Part shown: one piece after another, positions 1,764-58,217 of the stretch | Layout of the letters: each line of letters opens with the position of its first letter | Position numbering within the stretch: the first letter of the stretch is position 1 | Assembly: GCA_951406725.2 (NCBI GenBank) | Contig: OX597821.1 | Span: 49,476,001-49,540,000, forward strand | Direction: 5' to 3' | DNA length: 64,000 nucleotides | Source: Octopus vulgaris | Lineage: Eukaryota | Translations under genes and position numbers: made by a program | The notes under the pieces: generated by a model | Database searches by the model: none | Told to the model about the DNA's origin: nothing | Seen by the model: the letters and a program-made list of their open reading frames with translations, nothing else

Positions 1764-2543
1764 TAATAATAATAATAATAATAATAATTGTGTACAGTGC
1801 TCAGGTGCACTACAACTCATCTAAAGTGTATATATAATCAGGTGAAGTTTCGGCGGATTTCGGAAAGCATGAGGGCCTTAAAAGATGCAGTGTCATGGCA
1901 GTCAACAACTGACGCAGGCAGTTTATTCCATGCTTCAGCAACTCTGAGTGTGAAAAAATGTTTCCGAAAGTCATGGGAGCTGTATTGTTTTCTGACTTTG
2001 TAGGCATGTCCACGTGTGTTAGACACATGGAGATCAAAAAGGTGTTCAGTGTTGTTGTTGGTGAGGTGGTTGATAACTTTGTGGGTGTTTACCAAGTCCG
2101 TCGCCAAACGCCGGAGCTTCAGTGAATCCATGCCCAGGGAAACAAGGCGCTCAGAATATGGTAGGTGTCTGATGGAGGGTATGCGTTTGGTTGCACGTCT
2201 CTGGACAGATTCCAGGAGGTCAATGTTCTGTGCAAGATAGGGGTTCCAAACTGATGATGCGAATTCCAAGTGTGGTCGTACCATAGCTGTATACAGTTTT
2301 AAATAGATGGCTGGAGAGCGACTAACAAAAGACCTGCTGAGTGATGCCAAGACACCCTCGGCCTTCCTGACAATCTTAGAGATATGCTTTGACCAACGCA
2401 AATCACTGCTGACAGTGATGCCTAGGTCACGCTCGCAAGAGGATTTCTTGATATCAGTGTTGTGGAGGGAGTATGTGAACGCAGGGTTTTTCTCCCAAAA
2501 TGCATGGTGGTACACTTGTCCACAGCCAGTTTCAGTTGCCATG
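1764..2543 (-). mobile_element. 5'-truncated CR1-clade LINE, RT C-terminal region with (TTA)n tail
   Basis: ERDLGITVSSDLRW...LYTAMVRPHLEFASSVWNPY...LESVQRRATK...Y.ERL; upstream WQLKLAVDKCTTMHFG lies in a shifted frame; tail 1764-1787. Confidence 0.9.
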
Positions 2544-2743
2544 GTTTTTTTTTCTTGTCATTTTAACTATGAAAATCTTAGACTGAAAATACTTCTAAGA
2601 ATATGTTCTTTTCTAAGAAGAATAGTTTTTGGAGCACTTGCATGTCTATCTTGTAGTCAATTGTTGCAGGGACTAATCTTGATAATCCAATGAGAATTGG
2701 TACTTCTTTCACTTTTATTGTTGGGTATCTCCACTCTTTTGAT

Positions 2744-3245
2744 ATCATCATCATCATCATCGTTTAATGTCCACTCTCCATGCTGGCATGGATTAGCTGG
2801 TTTGACTGGAGCTGATGAGCCAGAGAGCTGCACCAGGTTCCAGTTTGATTTGGCATGGTTTCTACAGCTGAATGTCCTTCCTACCACCAACCACTCCAGG
2901 TGTGTAATGGATGCTTTTACGTGCCACTGGCACAGGTGCCATTTATCTGACACTGACCATGACCACTATTACAATTCATGGGTGGATGCCATTTACATGG
3001 CACTGTCAACAACCATGACTACAATGCACAGATGCCATTTAAATGGCACTGACAGTGACCATGATTCACAGGTGCCATTTACATAGTACCAACAGCAATC
3101 ACAATTACAATGCACAGGTGTCATTTACTTAGAAACAGCAGTGAACAACCATGACTGCGATTCACGGGTACCATTTACATGGCACTGGTAATGGCCCCAA
3201 ATACAATTTCACTTGGTCTGACAAGTCTTCTCACACACAGCATAT
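2744..3245 (-). mobile_element. RTE LINE 3' UTR with (GAT)n tail and ~45-bp tandem repeats (2930-3200)
   Basis: Same 3' terminus as the RTE copies at 12600-12779, 19357 and 33391. Confidence 0.75.
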
Positions 3246-3349
3246 CTCTTCTTTTAAATCAACATATTTTGAGATCTTTTCTACTTCCTTGTTTGCAATG
3301 TTTTTCCAATTTCCAATTTATTTTTTCATAATACTTGAATATATTGTAG

Positions 3350-3513
3350 GAAGTTCAAGATGATTTAATAACAGCTTGGCTGGATTGTCTAACATCACAG
3401 CCTCGAGCAACACCACTCATTCCTAAAGATCACAGCATCATCACCAACCTGGAAGAAACATTGTCACGTTATCTCAAAGATGTCCGTGTGTCAGGGATGA
3501 AGGCTGATAAAAG
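3350..3513 (+). CDS. NCLN: Nicalin internal coding exon (EVQDDLITAWLDCLTSQPRATPLIPKDHSIITNLEETLSRYLKDVRVSGMKADK-R)
   Basis: tag|GAA acceptor and AG|gtgact donor; matches the nicalin motif QPRA..L..KD...LE..LSRYLKDV....KADKRDPEF; phase-consistent with the next exon. Confidence 0.93.
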
Positions 3514-8804: not shown

Positions 8805-9205
8805 ATTATTTTGTTGTCTTTGCCTGTCCCTGAGCTCATCTTCTTTTTATTTTGTTTGTTTTTTTGTCCTCATCTGTTCACTAACTGTCTCATCTCGAAT
8901 TACTTTTATTCATTTTCGTGTGTCCATTTCCGTATTTCTTGTTCATCCTTGTTTGTCCATCTCATTTTGTTTCGTCATGTTTTGGTTGCATTCCCAGCAA
9001 GTTCTCTTGCCGGTTGCCTCCAGAGTGGAAGCGATATTATCGATATTGGCAGGAAATTGCATTCAATACCTGGCCGATAACTGATGAGTTGGTGACCTTC
9101 TGTGTTTGTTTTCCGTTTGTCTGTACATTTAGTATGTTTTTCTACTTGACCTTCTATGGCTTTTTTCTGTTTGTTTATTACTATATGTGTTTGACTTCTG
9201 AAAAT
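8805..9205 (+). mobile_element. Non-coding retroelement 3' end (probable PLE-type pseudo-LTR) carrying the permuted hammerhead-like motif
   Basis: T-rich sequence ending in (TA)n; structured motif at 9014-9087; element class inferred from architecture only. Confidence 0.5.
9014..9087 (+). ncRNA. Candidate non-circularly permuted hammerhead ribozyme, copy A
   Basis: GCGAT-A TTATCG N10 GAAATTGC N14 CGATAA CTGATGA; stems covary with copies B and C. Confidence 0.7.
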
Positions 9206-9287: not shown

Positions 9288-9292
<5 letters not shown>

Positions 9293-9462
9293 GAAAAATA
9301 CAAACTGGGACAAGAACGTAAAACATTTAGAAGACGATACAAAAAACACGGACGGGACATTCGAAGCCTTCAATCTTCAGTCAAGAACCGGATCATCCTA
9401 GCAATTTCAGCTGATTAATCTTGAGATCGCTCCGATCCGGCCAGCCCCAGGGAAAAACTAAG
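9288..9462 (-). mobile_element. Non-coding retroelement 3' end, same family as 21215-21850
   Basis: Shares gggacaagaa.g.aaaacat and ccagcccca.ggaaaaactaag with 21229-21380; abuts (TA)n. Confidence 0.65.
9374..9446 (-). ncRNA. Candidate non-circularly permuted hammerhead ribozyme with kink-turn, copy B
   Basis: On -: GGCTGG CCGGATCG GA GCGAT-C TCAAGA ttaa TCAGCT GAAATTGC TAG GA TGATCCGG t TCTTGA CTGAAGA. Confidence 0.75.
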
Positions 9463-19356: not shown

Positions 19357-21200
19357 ATCATCATCATCATTTAACGTCCGTTTTCCATGCTAGAATGGGT
19401 TGGACGGTTCAACCGGGATCTGGTAAGCCATGGCTGCACTAGGCTCCTGTCTGGTTTAGCAGTGTTTCTACAGCTGGATGCCCTTCCTAACACCAACCAC
19501 TCTGTGAGTGTAGTGGGTGTTTTTTACGTGCCACCGGCACAGGGGCCAGAGGAAGCTGGCAAACAGCCACGATCGGTTGGTGCTTTTACATGTCACCAAC
19601 AAGGACACCAGTCAGCCGGCGCTGGCATAACTACAATTTCCATTTGATTTTTATTTTGATGTTGGTGTTGACGTACTTGACTCAATAGGTCTCCTCAAGC
19701 ACAGCAGGTCGCCCTACGATCCAAGGTAAGCACAGTAGGTCGTTCTGCAATCAAAGGTACTTTGTATGGGCTTGGGCTTTGATTTTTATTTTGATGTTGG
19801 TGTTGACGTACTTGACTCAATAGGTCTCCTCAAGAACAGCAAGTCACTCTACAATCCAAGGTTAGCACAGCAGGCCGTTCTGTGAGCCATGAACTCACTT
19901 CATTTGTCTGGTTGTCACAGTCACATCATATCTCAGGGGTCTCGGTCTTTGTCATTTCCCCTGTGAGGCCCTATGTGCTACCGGCATAGGTATCACAACT
20001 ACAATATCCATACAATTTTTATTTTGATGTTGATGAACTTGACACAATAGGTCTCCTCAAGTGCAGCACGCCGTCCTGCAAGCCATGAAATCACTTCATT
20101 TGTCGGGTCTTCGAAGTCACAGCATATCTCCAGAGGTCTCAGTCTTTCATCATAGCTTCTGTGAGGCTCAACGTACGAAGGTCATGCTTGACCAACTCGT
20201 CCCATGTCTTCCTGGGTCTACCTCTACCCCGGATTTCTTCAACAGTTTGGGAGTGGCACTTCTTCCACATCTCTCCTCATCCATCTGTAGTACATGATCA
20301 TACCAATGCAATCGTCTCTCCTGCATGCTGCATCTAATGCCCAACATTTCTCTCAGGGCACTTACACTCTGTCATGCATGGACACTGACATTACACATCC
20401 AGCGGATCATGCCAGCTTCATGTCTTTCGAGCCTATGCATGTCCTCCGCAGTCACAGCCCATGTTTCACTGCCATGAAGCATGGCAGTTTGCACACATGT
20501 CGTACAATCTACCTTTCACTCTGAGCGAGAGACCATTTGTCGCCAGTAGGGGGAGAAGCTTCCTAAACTTTGCCCAGACTATTCTTATTCTAGTGGTAAC
20601 ACTCTCTGAGCATCCATCCCCGCTACTAACTTGGTCATCTAGGTAGCAGAAACTATCAACCACTTCTAGTTTCTCCCCCAGGAGTATAATGGAATCTCTT
20701 TTCTGAGTATCAATGGTGTCTATTGCCCCTGTGCATCTGCCGCACATGAAAGCTATCTTCTCAGTTAATTTTCCTTTGATATTGCTGCGCCTCTTATGTG
20801 TCCATAGCTTACACTGGGTACATCTTATGGAGTTTCTACATACACCTTTTCTACAGATTGAGCAGGGCCACCTTCCTGAAGGGGTTTGTGGTGAGTTTGC
20901 TTTCGTACTTACTAGAACTTTGGTCTTTGCTACATTGACTCTAAGGCCTTTTGATTCTAAACCTATCTTCCACACACGAAATTTCTTCTCTAAGTCTGGT
21001 AGTGATTCTGCTATGAGGGCTAGGTCATCAGCATAGAGGAGCTCCCAGGGACAACCCATCTTAAATTCCTCTGTTATTGCCTGGAGGACTATGATGAATA
21101 GAAGGGGACTGAGGGCTGAGCCTTGGTGGACGCCAACTTCTACCCGGAATTCTTCACTGTACTCATTGCCAATCCTAACCTTGCTAACAGCCTCTCTGTA
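19357..21200 (-). mobile_element. 5'-truncated RTE LINE
   Basis: ORF 20466-21198: GVHQGSALSPLLF, ELLYADDL, Cys-rich insert, WAKFRKLLPLL; duplicated segments in the 3' UTR; (GAT)n tail. Confidence 0.95.
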
Positions 21201-21214
21201 TATAAATATATATA

Positions 21215-21850
21215 TATAATGCAAAAATGGGACAAGAATGCAAAACATCCAGATAATTAGGTGATACAAAAAAGGGACAGCAAAACATCCAGACAGACAA
21301 GTTCCACATTATCTTTGCAATTTCGGCTGGTCATACTCGGGATTGCTCCAATCTGGTCAGCCCCAAGGAAAAACTAAGCTAAGAGCACTAGATTCCTTGG
21401 AAGAAAGCAGCGAATGTATACGAAAACAAGGATGGGAAAAAACAGAGAAATGGTACACAAATGACAAACAGAACATTAACGAGTGTCTTTTGACTAAGGA
21501 CAAATTAAATTAAGCTGGCACGTATGGAAGTAAAATCTTACAGCAGGGACATAAGATTTGACAGGCACAGGGAGGAATATAGATATTGCATGGATGGTAG
21601 TTGAACCAAGAAAGGTCAGACTTGGCTGAACACCGGTCATGTGAGGAGAGGAGAGAGAGCTATAGGCAAAGGGATAGAAGAATTAAGGAGGGGATGAGTA
21701 AAAAACGAAAGGGATAGAATAAAGTGAAAGAGGAGGGACGGTGAGCATGAAGAGAAGGCCAGGAAATGTGAGAGAAGGGGAACGAAAGAATGAAGAGTGG
21801 AATGAGCAAAGTAAGTGTGAAGGGGTTGATAGAAAGAATAATAGTCGTAC
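21215..21850 (-). mobile_element. Non-coding retroelement 3' region (probable PLE-type) with permuted hammerhead copy C
   Basis: Homologous to 9288-9462; purine-rich tract on +; (TA)n on both sides. Confidence 0.65.
21294..21362 (-). ncRNA. Permuted hammerhead-like motif, copy C (core truncated after CTG)
   Basis: On -: GGCTGA CCAGATTG GA GCAAT-C CCGAGT atga CCAGCC GAAATTGC AAA GA TAATGTGG a ACTTGT CTG. Confidence 0.6.
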
Positions 21851-21975
21851 AAAATTTAGATATATATATATATATATATATATACAAGAGACCAAAGTGT
21901 ACATACCCTGCTATGTATATTTGTGTGTGTATATATATATATATGTATGTATATGCATATATATATATATATATA

Positions 21976-24222: not shown

Positions 24223-25690
24223 GTGCTACTAATAGTTTCATTTGTTGAGAAAACACAAACATATTCTTCAGGTGCAAACCACATATAACGAACTAAATAA
24301 ATTGAATAAAAGAAGAAATGTGAAAAAACTGAAGGCAGCATATAGAAAACAGACAGTAACCAACAAAAAATAGAAACTAAGATGTAAAAAGATAAAAGAG
24401 CTATCCTCCTTAGACCTTAAATGATAAGGCTGGAAAGGTATCAAGTCAGTCAAGAATAGGCAGAATTTTCTAGTTCTTCAAAATATATTTATACATATGC
24501 ATGCAACTCCTGAAAAATTTCTGACCTGGAGTTCAACAGAGAGGAATCTTAGATCTGAACAAGATCTGCTCTCTTTCAGCCTAACAAAGTCTACATTTAT
24601 TCGATCCATTCACGTAAGGTATGGCTTTCTCAATTACTTTCCATTTAATCACATGCGGTGTCTCATTATCTTTCAAAGTCCAAACATAGCTAGCCAACTT
24701 TGTAGCTTTACTTTTGTCCTTATGCCGGAAGGAGGCTATGTGATTGGCATTGCAATTTTTTAATTCACCTTCATATAATCCAATATAAGTCTTCTTATCA
24801 GTTGTAGTATTATTTAGGGTTGCAGTAACTTCTGCCTTATATATGATAGATTTAGTTGTACATTGTTGGTCAAATGGACAAGATCCTGGGTTGTGACAGT
24901 TGCAACTGGATTCAGGTTCTTGGTATTGACCACGTGTAATTATACTCATCATATTGGAGCAGCAGCTATGTGATAATTTCATAGAACGCCTATTAAATAT
25001 TTTCCTGTATCTGTGAGTAGCTGGAAAGTGTTTGTCCAGTAGTGACAGGAATCTTTTACCAATGTTAGTTTTTATATTAAGGGAAAAGGGAGGAGTGAAC
25101 CAAATAATTTTCCTTGGTCTATTTTTAGATTTCTATTTTATCCTGATTAATACTAGAATGGTTATGTACTACTTTATCTTTGATGCCACTAGATCTATTT
25201 TTAATATTTTGATTGGATGGAAGCACTCCGTCGGTTACGACGACGAGGATTCCGGTTGATCCGAATCAACGGAACAGCCTGCTCGTGAAATTAACGTGTA
25301 AGTGGCTGAGCACTCCACAGACACGTGTACCCTTAACGCAGTTCTCAGGGATATTCAGCGTGACACAGAGAGTGACAAGGCCAGCCCCTTGAAATACAGG
25401 TACAACAGAAACAGGAAGTAAGAGTGAGAGAAAGTTGTGGTGAAAGAGTACAGCAGGGATCACCACCATCCCCTGCTGGAACCTCGTGGAGCTTTTAGGT
25501 GTTTTCGCTCAATAAACACTCACAACGCCCGGTCTGGGAATCGAAACCGCGAGTCCGCTGCCCTAACCACTGATTATTATTAGAGTGATTACATGTTAAT
25601 TTATCTTTGAAGCCACTATTAGCTAAGGCAGCTTTCTTGAAAATTTCTTTGGAAGAAGAAAGGATGCTATGTAGTAATGATAATAATTCC
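24223..25690 (-). mobile_element. Penelope-like element 3' part (RT end, linker, GIY-YIG endonuclease, hammerhead), interrupted by a SINE
   Basis: IIWFTPPFSLNIKTNIGKRFL...CNC....CPFDQQC...IIYKA...TYIG...CRLC; CTGAAGA...GAAACTATTAGTA at 24223-24275. Confidence 0.88.
25215..25572 (-). mobile_element. tRNA-SINE (family of 28444-28787)
   Basis: cagtggttagggcagcggactcgc...ttcgattcccagaccgggcgttg on -; 3' end gacggagtgcttccatcc. Confidence 0.9.
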
Positions 25691-38774: not shown

Positions 38775-39161
38775 TTAATTTGGTTCCCAAGTTATTGGAT
38801 TCCGATAAGTTGGGGGTGGGGCACTACGACAACGCCGACCTGGCCAAGTACCAGTTCGGTTTTTCTTGTCTCTGTTCAGTCTTACATGAGTCGCCCCCTC
38901 AGATACCCATTCAGGGTGTATTACAAAATAATCCCGTCGGGGTGAACATGGTTGTGAGAAAAGTCCTCCTTCATAAATATAATTTGATGATTCCGGACGG
39001 GGTAACTTTTTTTCATTGAACCGGTCACAGTTACGTCGAGATGAACGTCCAGCACGGCCTAAAGAATTTGAACCAGGTGAGCCATACCATCCATAGGTTG
39101 TCTGACAGTTCCGCCTGTAATATGCAGTATCTTGAGTATCATCTTTCTTCTTAGCAGCCAT
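38775..39161 (-). CDS. Uncharacterised 128-aa basic protein, single coding exon
   Basis: Uninterrupted non-repetitive ORF, GC-richer than flanks; strong acceptor tttcttttatatctttcag at 39200-39218, 38 nt upstream of the ATG; in-frame stops upstream of the ATG. Confidence 0.75.
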   Translation of the reverse strand: MAAKKKDDTQDTAYYRRNCQTTYGWYGSPGSNSLGRAGRSSRRNCDRFNEKKLPRPESSNYIYEGGLFSQPCSPRRDYFVIHPEWVSEGATHVRLNRDKKNRTGTWPGRRCRSAPPPTYRNPITWEPN

Positions 39162-39989
39162 GTGGAATGTTGACAGTTCAGATAATCATTGGTTTTAATC
39201 TGAAAGATATAAAAGAAATTTGAGATATTCTAAAATTATGAAAAACTGAGAATTTCTATTTATGTGGACCATAATGATATTGAAATTTGGTAAATTGAAT
39301 TGATTATATTTATATTGATGACAGATTGGGAAACTCGAGTCTAGAAATTTCAATCTGTGTGTCATTTGTTATCTTCAAACTGTCCATATACAGTGTTAGA
39401 CTGAAAATGTCTTTGATCATTGCTGAGAATCAAATTTTTATTGTAGAACAAGTAGAAAGATATATTATTTCAACATCCTTTTAAGAGCAGAAAAATTTGT
39501 CAGCAAATTTTTCTGTTCTTAAAGGATTTTATCCTTTGTATATACTGTTCAGTATTTATGTATTGAAAAATTATATCTTTCTACTTGTTCTACAATACAT
39601 TTCAATGCTTCAAAAACAAACTTATGTTTCTTTACATATGACAAATTTTTATTGTTTAACCAGTATTTCCACTTCAATTTTTGACATCATTTTTATTCAG
39701 GATTACTTTAGCCAGTAAATTCATCAATTTCTATGATGGTAAAAGAATTTGAATGTGATATTAATTAATCAAGCAGATTAATTGTCAAAACAGAAAGTTT
39801 CTCAGCTGTCACTCTTTCTAGTTACTCTCTCCCAATTGCTCATTACTTCTTCTTCCTCACCATTACTCATCTTCATTGTCATCCAGCATTCTCTCTGATT
39901 TCCAATAAACCCTCTACAATCACCCTGTCTTCCTCCTACCAATCTCTCTAACCCCATCACACCACTCCAGCTGCATTTATTCAAATGGA

Positions 39990-47099: not shown

Positions 47100-49190
47100 A
47101 CAAGCTAGTTCTCCATGGGCTGTGGCCTCTACAAACATCACTCCTTGATATTTGTCGGTTTTATACCATGTGTTCACCCTGTTTGCTTTGTCACAAGTTC
47201 TTTGTATTTTATTCCATTCTTTGTTTCTATATCTAAGTGATATCATTACATGTTTCTGATATCATTACATATAATGTTATCTAATTTCTTTCTAGCTCCC
47301 CTGTATACTCAAACCCTATCTTTCTGATCATATCCAGAGAACTGCATGCGGTGTATGAAGTTCTGTATATGTTTTTTCATTTCATAGGGTTTGCATAGTG
47401 GGGACACATTGTTCATTATTCAAACTAAGTCTGCTATTAGTATGCTAATTTTCATGTTATGTGACAAAGCTGAGTTCTTGTGAACAACATATTTTGAAGT
47501 TATGGGTTTCATGTAATAAGAGTTGCGGAGCTGCACTCTATTGTTCACAGTCTCTAACCAAAGTTCAGTATCAAGTACAGGGAGTCTATTGTTGGGGTAC
47601 TTAGTGGGGTAATCTATAGTTACCTTGATACTTTGGTGAATGGAGTTAGCTATTTACTGGATGTTCTCCATTTTGTTCCTCTAAGTTTCTACACCACCGT
47701 TACCAGAGTTGATCCTAACTATGATATTAATGTCATCTACATATCTACTGTAGAGTAGAATAGTTGTGGACTGTACTGCAAACATTTGTTTAAATTTTCT
47801 GTCCCACCATGTCATGAAGAGGCCAGCCACATCTCCAGCTACACCAACACCAATGGCTGCACCTTGAACCTGCATGTATAGTTTTTTATTAAACTTTACT
47901 ATGTGGTTTTTCAAGGTGGTTTTTACGCTGGCCCCTATTGCATGTGCAATCATTTCTTTCACCTGATTGTTGTTCTCAGGGTTTTGGATGGGTGCGGTCC
48001 AGCCACTCCAGCCCTCTGTGGTGCTTTTCTTCACCGCTGAAGTGATGGTGGGTGGTCTTCCCCTCAGTGACCTGGTGGGGCAGAATCTACTAAGGTCATG
48101 GTCATCTAAATAGTTACTGTCATAGCATAGTCTGAGGAGGAGGCCCAGTTCCCTAGTGTTCACCTTACGAAATTCCACTTCACTTTCACAGATTGCTTGA
48201 ATGCATTTCTCCACAGCAAAATCTATGTCTACAGATGGGTAGAGTGAAATTACCTCAATACTACCCACTATACAACTTGTGAGGTCGTTGGAGTGGTTGC
48301 AAGTACTGATTTTACTGAGATCTTCTGTACTCACATAGACATCTGGAGACATCTCTATGAGAGGTCACAATACCTGTGAGAGGAAGTAGGACAGTCTATA
48401 GTTGCTGGAGACGTTTGCTCCACAAACTGGTCTGGTTGGGGGTCCCCCGACAGGGTTTACATAAGGTTTGTGGTCTTTGCATAACCCGTATAGTGTAGGA
48501 TCATCACTGTTGGATGCCTGGAAATTGTGTGCCATCCTTTTTGTAGGTTGGAGTATGTTGCACCACATTCCCATGTGTGCATTGAGGAGTTTTTCTACTC
48601 TTTCATGTTCTTGTGGTGTAACTTCTCTCATGATACTGATGTGTTGTTGCATGGTCTGGACATAGTTCTGTGGGCTATCTACTGACAGTCTGCCAGACTT
48701 GTCCGTAGGGAGGCACACTAATTCTCTGTTCCTAATCCGCTGTTTTAGTTTTTGTAGGCCTTTGTCAACAAATGAGCTGAGTTGGTGGGTCCCCTCCTCA
48801 CTATGTTTTTTAGTGGATTTGTTGTATTGGTCTAAGATATGTCGGAGTCTATTTCTCGCTAAGGAGATCTTTCCTTCTGTTTCACTCACAATTTGGGGTG
48901 GGATACATACTCTTTTGTTAAAGGGTAAGTCTGTGGGATAGATTCTCGTCATGTCATAAGATTTGTTGTTAGGGTTATAGAAAACAGAGTGTAGAGTGTT
49001 ATTATCATTGTGGTTGTTGTTATAGTTGCTGGTATTGTTGTTGTTGGTGATGGTGGTGGTGGTAGTGCTTGTGTTGTGCCTATTATTATTGTTATTGGTG
49101 GCGTTGTTAATAGTGGTGTGAATGATGTGGTTGTTATCGTTTTGTTGTTGTTGTTGCTGTCGTCATCGTTAATGTTGTTGTTATTATAAT
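47100..49190 (-). pseudogene. Penelope-like element reverse transcriptase, decayed
   Basis: One frame from 48952 past 47350 with in-frame stops: PTDKSGR, LYGL.KDHK..PTRPV, SLYPS, Q..GAAIG, RYVDD, DYP....RLPVLD, YYMKP; N/T-rich low-complexity upstream tract. Confidence 0.88.
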
Positions 49191-56732: not shown

Positions 56733-56734
<2 letters not shown>

Positions 56735-57942
56735 TAACGGGAAGCTTTATGAAAATAGACAAAGGACGAAGGCAGGTGGAAAACAAACAAACAATTGTAT
56801 TAGTATGGCGCTCAGGAAATATAAATAAAACAAGTCTTTAACGTTTCGAGCCTACGCTCTTCAACAGAAAGATACACAGAGAGAAAAAAACACAGAAAGA
56901 AGGAGAGAAAAAAATGCGTGCAGTAACTAACGAATCAACATGGCGATCTGATTTCGGCCAGAAGTCAAAGATCAAACATGAGACGTGAGAGCGAAATAAG
57001 GGGAGATAATAGGGTTGATAATAGGGTTGAATGACCACCTATTAGTGCGTAGGAGGGGTCTGGACGTGTGTATGTATAGGGTAGGTGTATGTATTAGTAT
57101 GTATTAGTATGTATAAGGGTGTGTGTGTGTATGAGAGAGTATTAGTGCGTAGGATAGGTCTGGACAGGCGTATGTATGGAGTTGGTGTATGTATTAGTAT
57201 GTATTAGTATGTATTAGTACGTATTAGTATGTATAAGTGTGTGTGTGTGTGTGTATGAGAGAGTATAAGTGCGTATGAGGGGTCTGGACGTGTGTATGTA
57301 TAGGGTTGGTGTATGTATTAGTATGTATTAGTATGTATTAGTACGTATTAGTATGTATTAGTTGGTGTATGTATTAGTATGGCACATCATATATGATGTG
57401 ATGTGTAAAGTCGTGTGGTGTAGTGAGGAGAAGAGGGGGAGGGGCGAAGAGGGGAGAGAGAGGGGAGAAGGAAGGGGAGGAGGAGGGGAGGAAGGAGGAA
57501 AGAGGGGGAGGGGGAGAGAGAAGGGGAGTGAGGGAGCAGAGGGAAGGGGAAGGAGGGAGGGAGAAAGAGGGAAGAAGGGAAGGGGAGTAGGGGTGAAAGG
57601 ATGAAGGACTGAAGAAGTAGGGGTCGGGGGGAAGGATAGGTGAGGAGGGGGGAGGGGGTTAGATGAGGAGGGGGGAGAGTTGAGACCAAATGGCGTATAA
57701 GAGCGAAGAGAGAAGATTAATTCCTGTTCACGGCGCAAACGGGAATCCGGATGGCCTCTGTGTAAGGACAAACCGAACACAGATAGGTGTTGCAAGGAGT
57801 GACCGGTGGAGCGGAAATGGCGTGAGACCGGTGTGTCGTTCGCAAGGTGGATGTCACGAAGGTGTTCCGCGAACCGGTCAGCCAAGCGGCGTCCCGTTTG
57901 ACCGATGTACAAGGAATTGCAGAGAGAGCAAGAGACGCAATA
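56733..57942 (-). mobile_element. 5'-truncated Penelope-like element: GIY-YIG endonuclease, repeat-rich 3' region, hammerhead
   Basis: YCVSCSLCNSLYIGQTGRRLADRFAEH...VSRHF...H...RLRREQELI..L....PFGLN; ends in (TA)n; three ~100-bp tandem units at 57040-57380. Confidence 0.92.
56835..56872 (-). ncRNA. Minimal type I hammerhead with variant core
   Basis: On -: TCTTT CTGTTGA A GAGC GTAG GCTC GAA ACGT T AAAGA. Confidence 0.7.
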
Positions 57943-58217
57943 GGTAGGTAGATAGATATGTATGTAGACAGGTATGTATTTATATGTATTTTGATAGGTA
58001 AGTAGATATATGCCAAGTTACTCTTAGTGTTACTAGTAACATGTAACCCAATACAACCTGTCGCATAGTTGAACCATTGGTGATTAAACTGGCAACCCTA
58101 CAAAGCATTTGGTAAAGAAGGTGGTCTGCATTGGACATTCTGCAGGATGAAAAACAGGATGGATGAACTCAGAGTCAACAGCTATGCAATAGCTGAGAGT
58201 GATAAACTTGTCTTTGT

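Follow-up and report, generated by a model that had tools for sequence, protein, structure and literature searches.

Which mobile element left the repeat at positions 21,215 to 21,850 of a 64,000-nucleotide (nt) stretch of Octopus vulgaris DNA (contig OX597821.1, 49,476,001 to 49,540,000; the whole stretch is called the window below), and is the hammerhead-like motif that it carries a ribozyme? A preliminary description of the window, made from its letters, had recognized here the third copy (copy C, beside copies A and B) of a hammerhead motif with permuted parts, and had proposed as its carrier a microsatellite-inserting Penelope-like element (PLE), possibly a Naiad or Chlamys. We consider it probable, from comparison of related sequences, that the stretch belongs to a non-coding repeat and has lost the core of its motif; in intact relatives the hammerhead blocks come in the order II5'-S-G-C, and this fold is likely self-cleaving and likely derived from Naiad PLEs. 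In this notation block S holds the cleavage triplet, block G the GAAA, block C the CUGANGA, and II5' is the 5' strand of stem II. The motif of copy C lies on the minus strand, within a non-coding repeat unit of family C that spans 21215-21914, and is composed as follows:

21215..21914, minus strand: family C repeat unit, consisting of the 30-nt tail (21914-21885), (TA)n, a pyrimidine-rich body, the ribozyme-like motif, and a T-rich 3' end adjoining (TA)n
21401..21416, minus strand: helix IV 5' strand, whose partner in intact copies is the bases directly after A9; the partner is deleted in copy C
21363..21400, minus strand: hairpin P0, its last base being the base that precedes G10.1
21358..21362, minus strand: stem II 5' strand, G10.1 first, displaced upstream of block S (from sequence and covariation)
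21347..21356, minus strand: 5' strand of helix V, together with the GGA side of a loop resembling a kink-turn (pattern by eye)
21335..21346, minus strand: block S, that is, stem III 3' strand, AUC triplet and stem I 3' strand; predicted cut 21341/21340; U1.1>C
21317..21329, minus strand: block G, that is, stem II 3' strand, GAAA and stem III 5' strand (from sequence)
21304..21316, minus strand: bulge of 3 nt, then GAU and the 3' strand of helix V, which carries one C>G change
21297..21302, minus strand: stem I 5' strand remnant and junction of a 49-nt deletion (from comparison with the family majority)

Read 5' to 3', copy C runs GGCUG (21362-58), the first helix V strand, GGA, GCAAUC, CCGAGU, a 5-nt linker, CAGCC GAAA UUGC, AAA GAU, the second helix V strand and the stem I remnant. 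The preliminary description is borne out for stem II (GGCUG/CAGCC, 21362-58/21329-25, with G10.1-C11.1 adjoining GAAA), for stem III (GCAAU/AUUGC, 21346-42/21321-17), for the 10-nt and 14-nt spacers, and for the sixth stem I pair, which is U-A in copy C, A-U in copy A and G-C in copy B; it overlooked helices P0, IV and V, and it ended the element at 21850, whereas the family C element continues, with its 30-nt tail, to about 21914. Comparison with the majority of 30 copies of the family reveals a 49-nt deletion in copy C, by which CUGAGGA and the helix IV 3' strand are lost. The best placement of this deletion, between two TCG microhomologies, removes the whole of CUGAGGA; the alternative placement, the one picked by MAFFT, requires one more substitution. 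The loss of the core had been seen correctly, but on the TCG placement the "CTG" taken for its last bases is probably downstream sequence. Substitutions relative to the family majority are U1.1>C in stem I and C>G in helix V. Because the deletion took the core, copy C cannot form a hammerhead: it is dead, and is in itself merely one further allele. Its nested folding z is -0.9, compared with -2.05 for family A, where the nested fold recovers helices IV, P0, III and V. Within the window only copy A aligns to copy C by blastn (E 1e-14), copy B having been found by pattern, and none of copies A, B and C is whole: copy A is without one arm of P0, and C11.1 is changed in copy B.

The fold has to be read from the relatives of copy C, where the strand order is IV5' - P0 - II5' - V5' - III3' NUH^ I3' - short linker - II3' GAAA III5' - V3' - I5' CUGANGA - IV3', the caret marking the predicted cut. 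The hammerhead blocks thus stand in the non-circular order S-G-C, and the core is opened between A9 and G10.1 and rejoined via two extra helices; helices IV and P0 occupy the place of the usual A9-G10.1 bond, since IV follows A9 and P0 precedes G10.1. The core bases (CUGANGA, GAAA, NUH) are present in the family majority and in 17 instances of the motif, with copy C lacking its CUGAGGA, and around them stand A15.1-U16.1, G10.1-C11.1 and stems I, II and III. Among the 17 instances the core is CUGAUGA in 11, CUGAGGA in three, CUGAAGA in two and CUGACGA in one, and every triplet is NUH. Behind CUGANGA, where stem II would normally continue, at most two pairs are possible in 12 of 14 instances; the strand located upstream of block S offers a 5-6-bp partner that begins with G10.1. 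Helix V, which joins the end of this upstream strand to the bases preceding stem I, has at least five pairs in 17/17. Helix IV pairs the bases directly after A9 with those directly before P0 (for example UUUCUU/AAGAAA at locus L005, offsets 0,0), and P0 and IV together, which are not part of the search descriptor, occur in strict fixed geometry in 9 of 14 instances, compared with 1.8 expected from shuffles. An early idea, that helix IV was the P0 3' arm paired with the tail, was dropped once P0 had been recognized.

The letters of stems I, II, III and V differ between families while pairing is kept: across the 17 instances the first stem I position is UA in ten, CG in five, GC in one and UG in one, and each of stem II positions 2-5 shows three to four Watson-Crick types. 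The descriptor gave no split-core match in 20 x 80 dinucleotide-shuffled loci (1,600). By eye, a kink-turn pattern (a 3-nt bulge with tandem G-A pairs) joins stems III and V in families A and C and in the Ovul type, and loosely in family B; such a turn would bend the arm back to stem I. Kink-turns are bound by host proteins of the L7Ae family. Several observations weigh against this description of the fold. Stems I-III and the G10.1-C11.1 pairing are not an independent test, because the descriptor imposes them; only 5 of 30 family C copies and 0 of 20 family B copies pass it; P0 and IV fail the strict test in 5 of 14 instances, the failures other than the Ovul-type copy showing similar, imperfect helices; and the kink-turn is not general, a script having seen no standard pattern in most of the metagenomic loci described below.

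Natural hammerheads tolerate a single extra base between A9 and G10.1, as a viroid and the minimal hammerheads of PLEs show (PMC3705267, PMC4209133; this and later statements draw on the portions of the cited sources that were covered), which makes a break at this point plausible. It counts against the fold that the insertions known there are one or two bases and not helices (PMC10085705), and the covered portions of PMC13725137, PMC3088659, PMC11300833 and PMC10162972 name no helix insertion there; we found no precedent.

The connection to Naiads emerges from published elements and from a wider search. Naiad PLEs target (TA)n, form partial tandems and carry a 30-40-bp tail (Craig et al. 2021, PMC8557442); a canonical hammerhead was reported absent from them, core halves being flagged in some, and Naiad_Ovul was annotated "HHR_half_core" (PMC8557442). 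The ends of Naiad_Ovul and Naiad_Obim have the same fold in other letters, and a 19-mer of Naiad_Ovul has 267 exact matches in the host genome. There the motif is found 1.25-1.47 kb behind Naiad-type reverse transcriptase (RT) remnants at three of eight fetched loci, and a protein search gave 30 loci, seven of which have it downstream in the sense orientation; over all such loci the distance is 1.1-1.5 kb downstream. Used as a query, an RT remnant retrieved 10 proteins, and their alignment retrieved 80 metagenomic Naiad-like loci. The full-length proteins P0003, P0004 and P0008 have the N-terminal GIY-YIG domain, CxC, the DKA motif and RT of an autonomous Naiad, features that the Naiad_Ovul-type copies of the host genome retain as remnants.

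With a descriptor open to every block order, the fold was found in the untranslated regions (UTRs) of 13 of the 80 loci. On the sense strand ten of them are II5'-S-G-C (L166 and L169 being near-identical) and two are C-insert-II5'-S-G, and relaxing stem III added L178 as a third C-insert-S-G locus. A further sense-strand match is doubtful, and another is antisense. In these C-insert-S-G loci 23-27 nt lie between A9 and G10.1, forming two hairpins (L174 and L185; L178 by eye). Because the insert in the continuous strand folds as IV and P0, the two orders can be understood as openings of one ring, and both fall within one well-supported RT clade (quick tree, with a long branch for the host-genome row). 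The last 330-420 nt of 52 published Naiad consensus ends, judged by eye and without the descriptor, hold eight split forms (Bfor, in which stem I is short; 3_Chem, whose P0 and IV fall out of view; Amil, Aacu, Anas, EuTe, Obim and Ovul) and six nematode ends of plain type CSG; the rest show neither within view. The six, the 3' ends of Naiad-1/2/3_Nbra, Hcon, Hpol and Asuum in the supplement of PMC8557442, look by eye like complete type-CSG hammerheads with undivided block C. Weighing against a general role, 67 of the 80 Naiad-like loci give no clear match, 23 of them with at least 800 nt downstream. We nevertheless lean, a little beyond even odds, towards the view that the Naiads of ctenophores, cnidarians, arthropods, molluscs and nematodes share a family of knotted hammerheads, all of them versions of a single S-G-C ring that evolution would have opened in different places. 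One of these openings would lie within the catalytic strand, a junction of two helices taking over from the A9-G10.1 bond, and the ribozymes would cleave in vivo with their products held so that the element RNA circularises for reverse transcription.

Other Naiad ends hold other structures. Just past the stop codon, in the hammerhead's place, the ends of bivalve and hemichordate Naiads and L172:2856 have a different conserved structured motif (GGYGGGUG ... CACCUG), which by eye has a twister- or hepatitis delta virus-like look; 20 loci without the hammerhead gave no Rfam ribozyme match. Spider and ostracod Naiad ends have CCCC-CUGANGA with a helix behind it and GAAA upstream of it, which may be yet another way of wiring a hammerhead. 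A metagenomic Naiad-like 3' UTR contains a selenocysteine insertion sequence (SECIS) element (L144:1987-2048, Rfam 38.8 bits), as in selenoprotein Naiads. In P0009 a Naiad-like RT is fused with a C-terminal ubiquitin-hydrolase-type domain (PF00443/PF13423, precomputed), and the UTRs of L138 and L147 may encode a similar region.

How do the non-coding families of the window relate to these elements? Copies A and B are laid out as follows:

9292..9462, minus strand: copy A, 5'-truncated, of the young sister family, with an intact CUGAAGA core (9380-9374), a cut predicted at 9425/9424 and C11.1>U
8984..9200, plus strand: copy B, of a distant family with the same fold; predicted cut after 9036; core CUGAUGA at 9081-9087; C11.1>G

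Copy A is without the 5' arm of P0 and the helix IV 5' strand. The genome-wide search that the preliminary description had called for gave 4,904 first-look candidates for family C, which are not copy numbers; 40 were scored, at 78-86% identity. The flanks of 30 family C copies are mutually unrelated and mostly (TA)n. In 18 of 30 family C loci, copy C included, the 30-nt tail lies either about 580-720 nt upstream of GAAA or 144-188 nt downstream of it; the tail stands at either end, and the family C unit, of about 750 nt, therefore behaves as a circular permutation. Family A is 73% like family C over the 3' 220 nt, and its copies are 98-99% identical, a young family; at locus L115 eight of its units stand head to tail (period 830 nt, one unit shorter), each with the motif. 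A fourth non-coding family (L209:341-490, minus strand) has stem II GGCUG/CAGCC with different letters in stems I, III and V.

In line with the carrier first proposed, the distance between the motif and the T-rich end is fixed (101-183 nt by family median), a position on which that proposal had been staked, and the head-to-tail copies, the 30-nt tail and the same fold behind Naiad RT point the same way. The 80-120 nt given at first for the distance to the (TA)n end fits GAAA of copy C (106 nt) and is loose for copy B (156 nt; 124 nt in copy A). As had also been stated, no coding sequence is attached to copies of families C, A or B: they lack the open reading frame (ORF) with N-terminal GIY-YIG, CxC, DKA motif and RT in cis that defines an autonomous Naiad. 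Non-autonomous Naiad derivatives are expected to insert into (TA)n, to stand head to tail and to have a tail (here of 30 nt) at one end or the other; these traits are present, and are common to other PLE clades too. Because no coding sequence is attached to families A, B and C, we only infer that Naiad proteins move them.

It is worth weighing whether the ribozyme is real but a different PLE, for instance the host's intact Neptune-type family, moves families A and C, the Naiad-type motif having only been borrowed or inherited. The 98-99% identity of family A calls for a working RT, while the Naiad matches in the host genome, which are short or broken, have open frames of at most 292-415 aa among the best-scoring ones, and Craig et al. 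call cephalopod Naiads long inactive (PMC8557442). By comparison, the host genome holds dozens of 784-785-aa frames of RT with C-terminal GIY-YIG ending in (TA)n. It tells against a Naiad source that two protein searches of the host genome found no coding partner for families A, B and C; what they brought up were decayed Naiad copies, whose motif sequence differs, and intact Neptune-type ORFs dissimilar to the families. None of the 72 fetched host-genome loci is a coding copy bearing the A/B/C motif, the motif of the Naiad remnants having the same fold in different letters, and tblastn of Naiad and Neptune proteins against the families gave no match. Against another PLE as the mover, the Neptune-type elements have no DNA similarity to families A and C and have a type I-like core of their own, the divergence of family C (78-86%) is about that of the Naiad remnants, and only the best 96-122 of 2,165-3,504 candidates were scored, so that an intact Naiad can be missed. 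We regard movement by another PLE as unlikely on balance, though it is the alternative that we take most seriously. The Neptune-type element (L226-L235, e.g. G000:C18:50618800-50624500) is itself a young high-copy PLE with a 437-aa frame upstream of, and overlapping, the 785-aa RT-endonuclease frame. It also has a pseudo-long terminal repeat (pseudo-LTR) and ends in (TA)n, and its type I core (GUUGAAAA ... GAAA) deviates strongly.

If the Naiad-type motif does cleave, the mode of transposition may be envisaged as follows. The transcript would be cut at NUH once CUGANGA, the last block to be made, is transcribed; the 5' product, held by helices II, III, IV and V, would favour re-ligation, and head-to-tail arrays would yield unit-length RNA that could circularise. 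A nick made in (TA)n by a PLE protein would then serve to prime reverse transcription within the T-rich end, some 110-150 nt past the cut. A cleaved linear template would produce copies of about 130 nt beginning at the cut, and an uncut or ligated template full units, duplicated tails and arrays; copying of circular or tandem templates from a nick has been proposed for PLE hammerheads (PMC4209133).

This scheme predicts a step in truncation junctions at +1, the trace that a template with its 5' end at the cut would be expected to leave. We counted junctions in the host genome as (TA)3 joined to the element at set points. For family A the counts are 116 at +1/+2 of the predicted cut, 14 at -1 to -3, 6 at -11/-12 (a count lowered by two CpG sites) and 68 at +10/+11 (one allele only); the +1 and -3 patterns span nearly the same bases, and the longer microhomology is at -3. 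A gapped search of family A over a 17-base window gave, by hand count of 33 loci among the matches listed, 24 at +1 (one ambiguous) and 9 over -3 to -16; a second, of 38 loci, gave 8 at +1, 1 upstream and 29 at +3 to +11 (also counted by hand). Family C has 7 junctions at the cut versus 1 upstream. Ovul-type junctions were left uncounted as ambiguous, because the triplet there ends in UA, like the target repeat. Contigs from sequencing runs reveal neither the ends nor the strand of an RNA and do not enter this evidence.

These junctions also bear on the possibility that the motif is a hammerhead-derived signal without catalysis, bound by RT or a host protein, with the junction peak arising from RT stalling or from a re-amplified short master. 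A single subfamily sequence is common to four of the 12 fetched +1 copies; part of the copies may thus go back to one short master, and the +1 peak may be inflated; the +10/+11 junctions are also frequent, and the A9-G10.1 break lacks a tested precedent that we could find. Against such a signal, all catalytic bases and NUH are kept across distant lineages, the step falls exactly at the predicted bond (116 vs 14) despite better microhomology two bases upstream, and the 12 +1 copies comprise at least three subfamily sequences. Nor would any helix be expected to block RT at +1, since the partners of stems I and III would by then have been copied. We therefore hold a non-catalytic origin to be improbable.

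Among known ribozymes the closest are the type-SGC hammerheads (HRIMA-1 and variants; Eckert et al. 2023, PMC10085705), with which the fold shares the S-G-C order, a pseudoknotted core, a short S-G linker (1-5 nt here) and a helix that ties stems I and II together (here helix V). Theirs, however, have a continuous block C, assumed to be indivisible, whereas here II5' and a helix V strand stand in front and IV and P0 bridge A9 and G10.1; and they come from metatranscriptomes, none from the genome of a known organism, whereas here the motif is high-copy in an animal genome and tied to a retroelement. Type CSG (two metagenome sequences, PMC10085705) has the C-S-G order of L174, L178 and L185 and of the six plain nematode ends, but in L174, L178 and L185 block C is interrupted by a two-hairpin insert; the portion of PMC10085705 covered reports no connection of CSG with retroelements. 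As judged from sequence, the fold is hammerhead-like, closest to type SGC, and outside all six published types, because its block C is divided: the stem II 5' strand follows CUGANGA neither directly nor after 1-2 bases. Rfam hammerhead models had no match in the window (E 5) or in 16 motif-bearing loci (E 0.05); the other Rfam matches were microsatellite-driven microRNA matches in the window and motif loci and one SECIS in 20 motif-less loci. In the literature covered, which left out most subscription journals and the supplement of PMC10085705, we found no paper that describes the split-core wiring or links Naiads to permuted hammerheads.

With the published Naiads (PMC8557442) the loci studied here share (TA)n targets, partial tandems, the 30-40-bp tail and, in coding loci, GIY-YIG, CxC, DKA and RT; the permuted fold went unrecognized there, in the portion covered, and families A, B and C differ in being non-coding. 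Like the minimal type I hammerheads of PLE pseudo-LTRs and non-LTR retrozymes (PMC4209133; bioRxiv 10.64898/2026.07.22.740005), the motif lies near the element end and occurs in non-coding head-to-tail arrays, a cleavage-circularisation cycle has been proposed, and an extra base is tolerated between 9 and 10.1; unlike them, which are circularly permuted, have a weak stem III and act as dimers, it is knotted in order, and its stem III is complete within the monomer. The tandem units of L115 carry this motif and not a type I hammerhead, which sets them apart from non-LTR retrozymes. For comparison, the window contains a PLE of the latter kind:

56733..58017, minus strand: PLE remnant with a C-terminal GIY-YIG piece at 57717-58017 (Pfam GIY-YIG E 0.0047, below cut-off)
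56836-56872, minus strand: variant minimal type I hammerhead, CUGUUGA with an extra A; no Rfam match

The preliminary description had taken this hammerhead as canonical and as placed like the permuted copies; the placement holds (GAAA 115 nt from the (TA)n end), but the core is not canonical.

The same comparisons make it very doubtful that the motif is an ordinary type-SGC hammerhead, in which stem II would be built from the sequence that follows CUGANGA, or would form only between two copies, the upstream strand being incidental. L117 and L118 could form 4 and 3 pairs at offset 2 after A9, and metazoan PLE hammerheads often act as dimers (PMC4209133); however, 12 of 14 instances allow two pairs or fewer after A9, against the 5-6 offered by the upstream strand, and the C-insert-S-G loci have the same two helices within a continuous strand. 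Chance, or the 5' UTR of the unrelated RTE-like RT remnant at 20466-21200 (minus strand; Pfam RVT_1 E 1.6e-11) that begins at the (TA)n end of copy C in the same orientation, might be suggested by that adjacency and by copy C's own weak nested fold, but has a negligible chance of being right and is refuted by the unrelated 3' flanks of the 30 family copies and the empty shuffles.

Were the split fold to cleave, the premise of an uninterruptible CUGANGA block would be overturned, animal genomes would turn out to hold thousands of copies of non-circularly permuted ribozymes, and there would be an answer to the reported lack of hammerheads in Naiads, a lack that had been used to argue that PLE hammerheads may be dispensable passengers. 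The series from plain CSG through CSG with insert to the form opened in the insert offers a testable route for the origin of permutations, and the pile-up of 5' ends at the predicted cut makes a role of cleavage in PLE transposition directly testable.

Elsewhere in the window, open frames at 47681-49162 and 24581-25132 (both minus strand) resemble PLE RT and GIY-YIG remnants by eye, with no Pfam match at E 0.01. A 136-aa open frame at 38775-39185 (minus strand) has an ordinary amino-acid make-up and is possibly a host exon.
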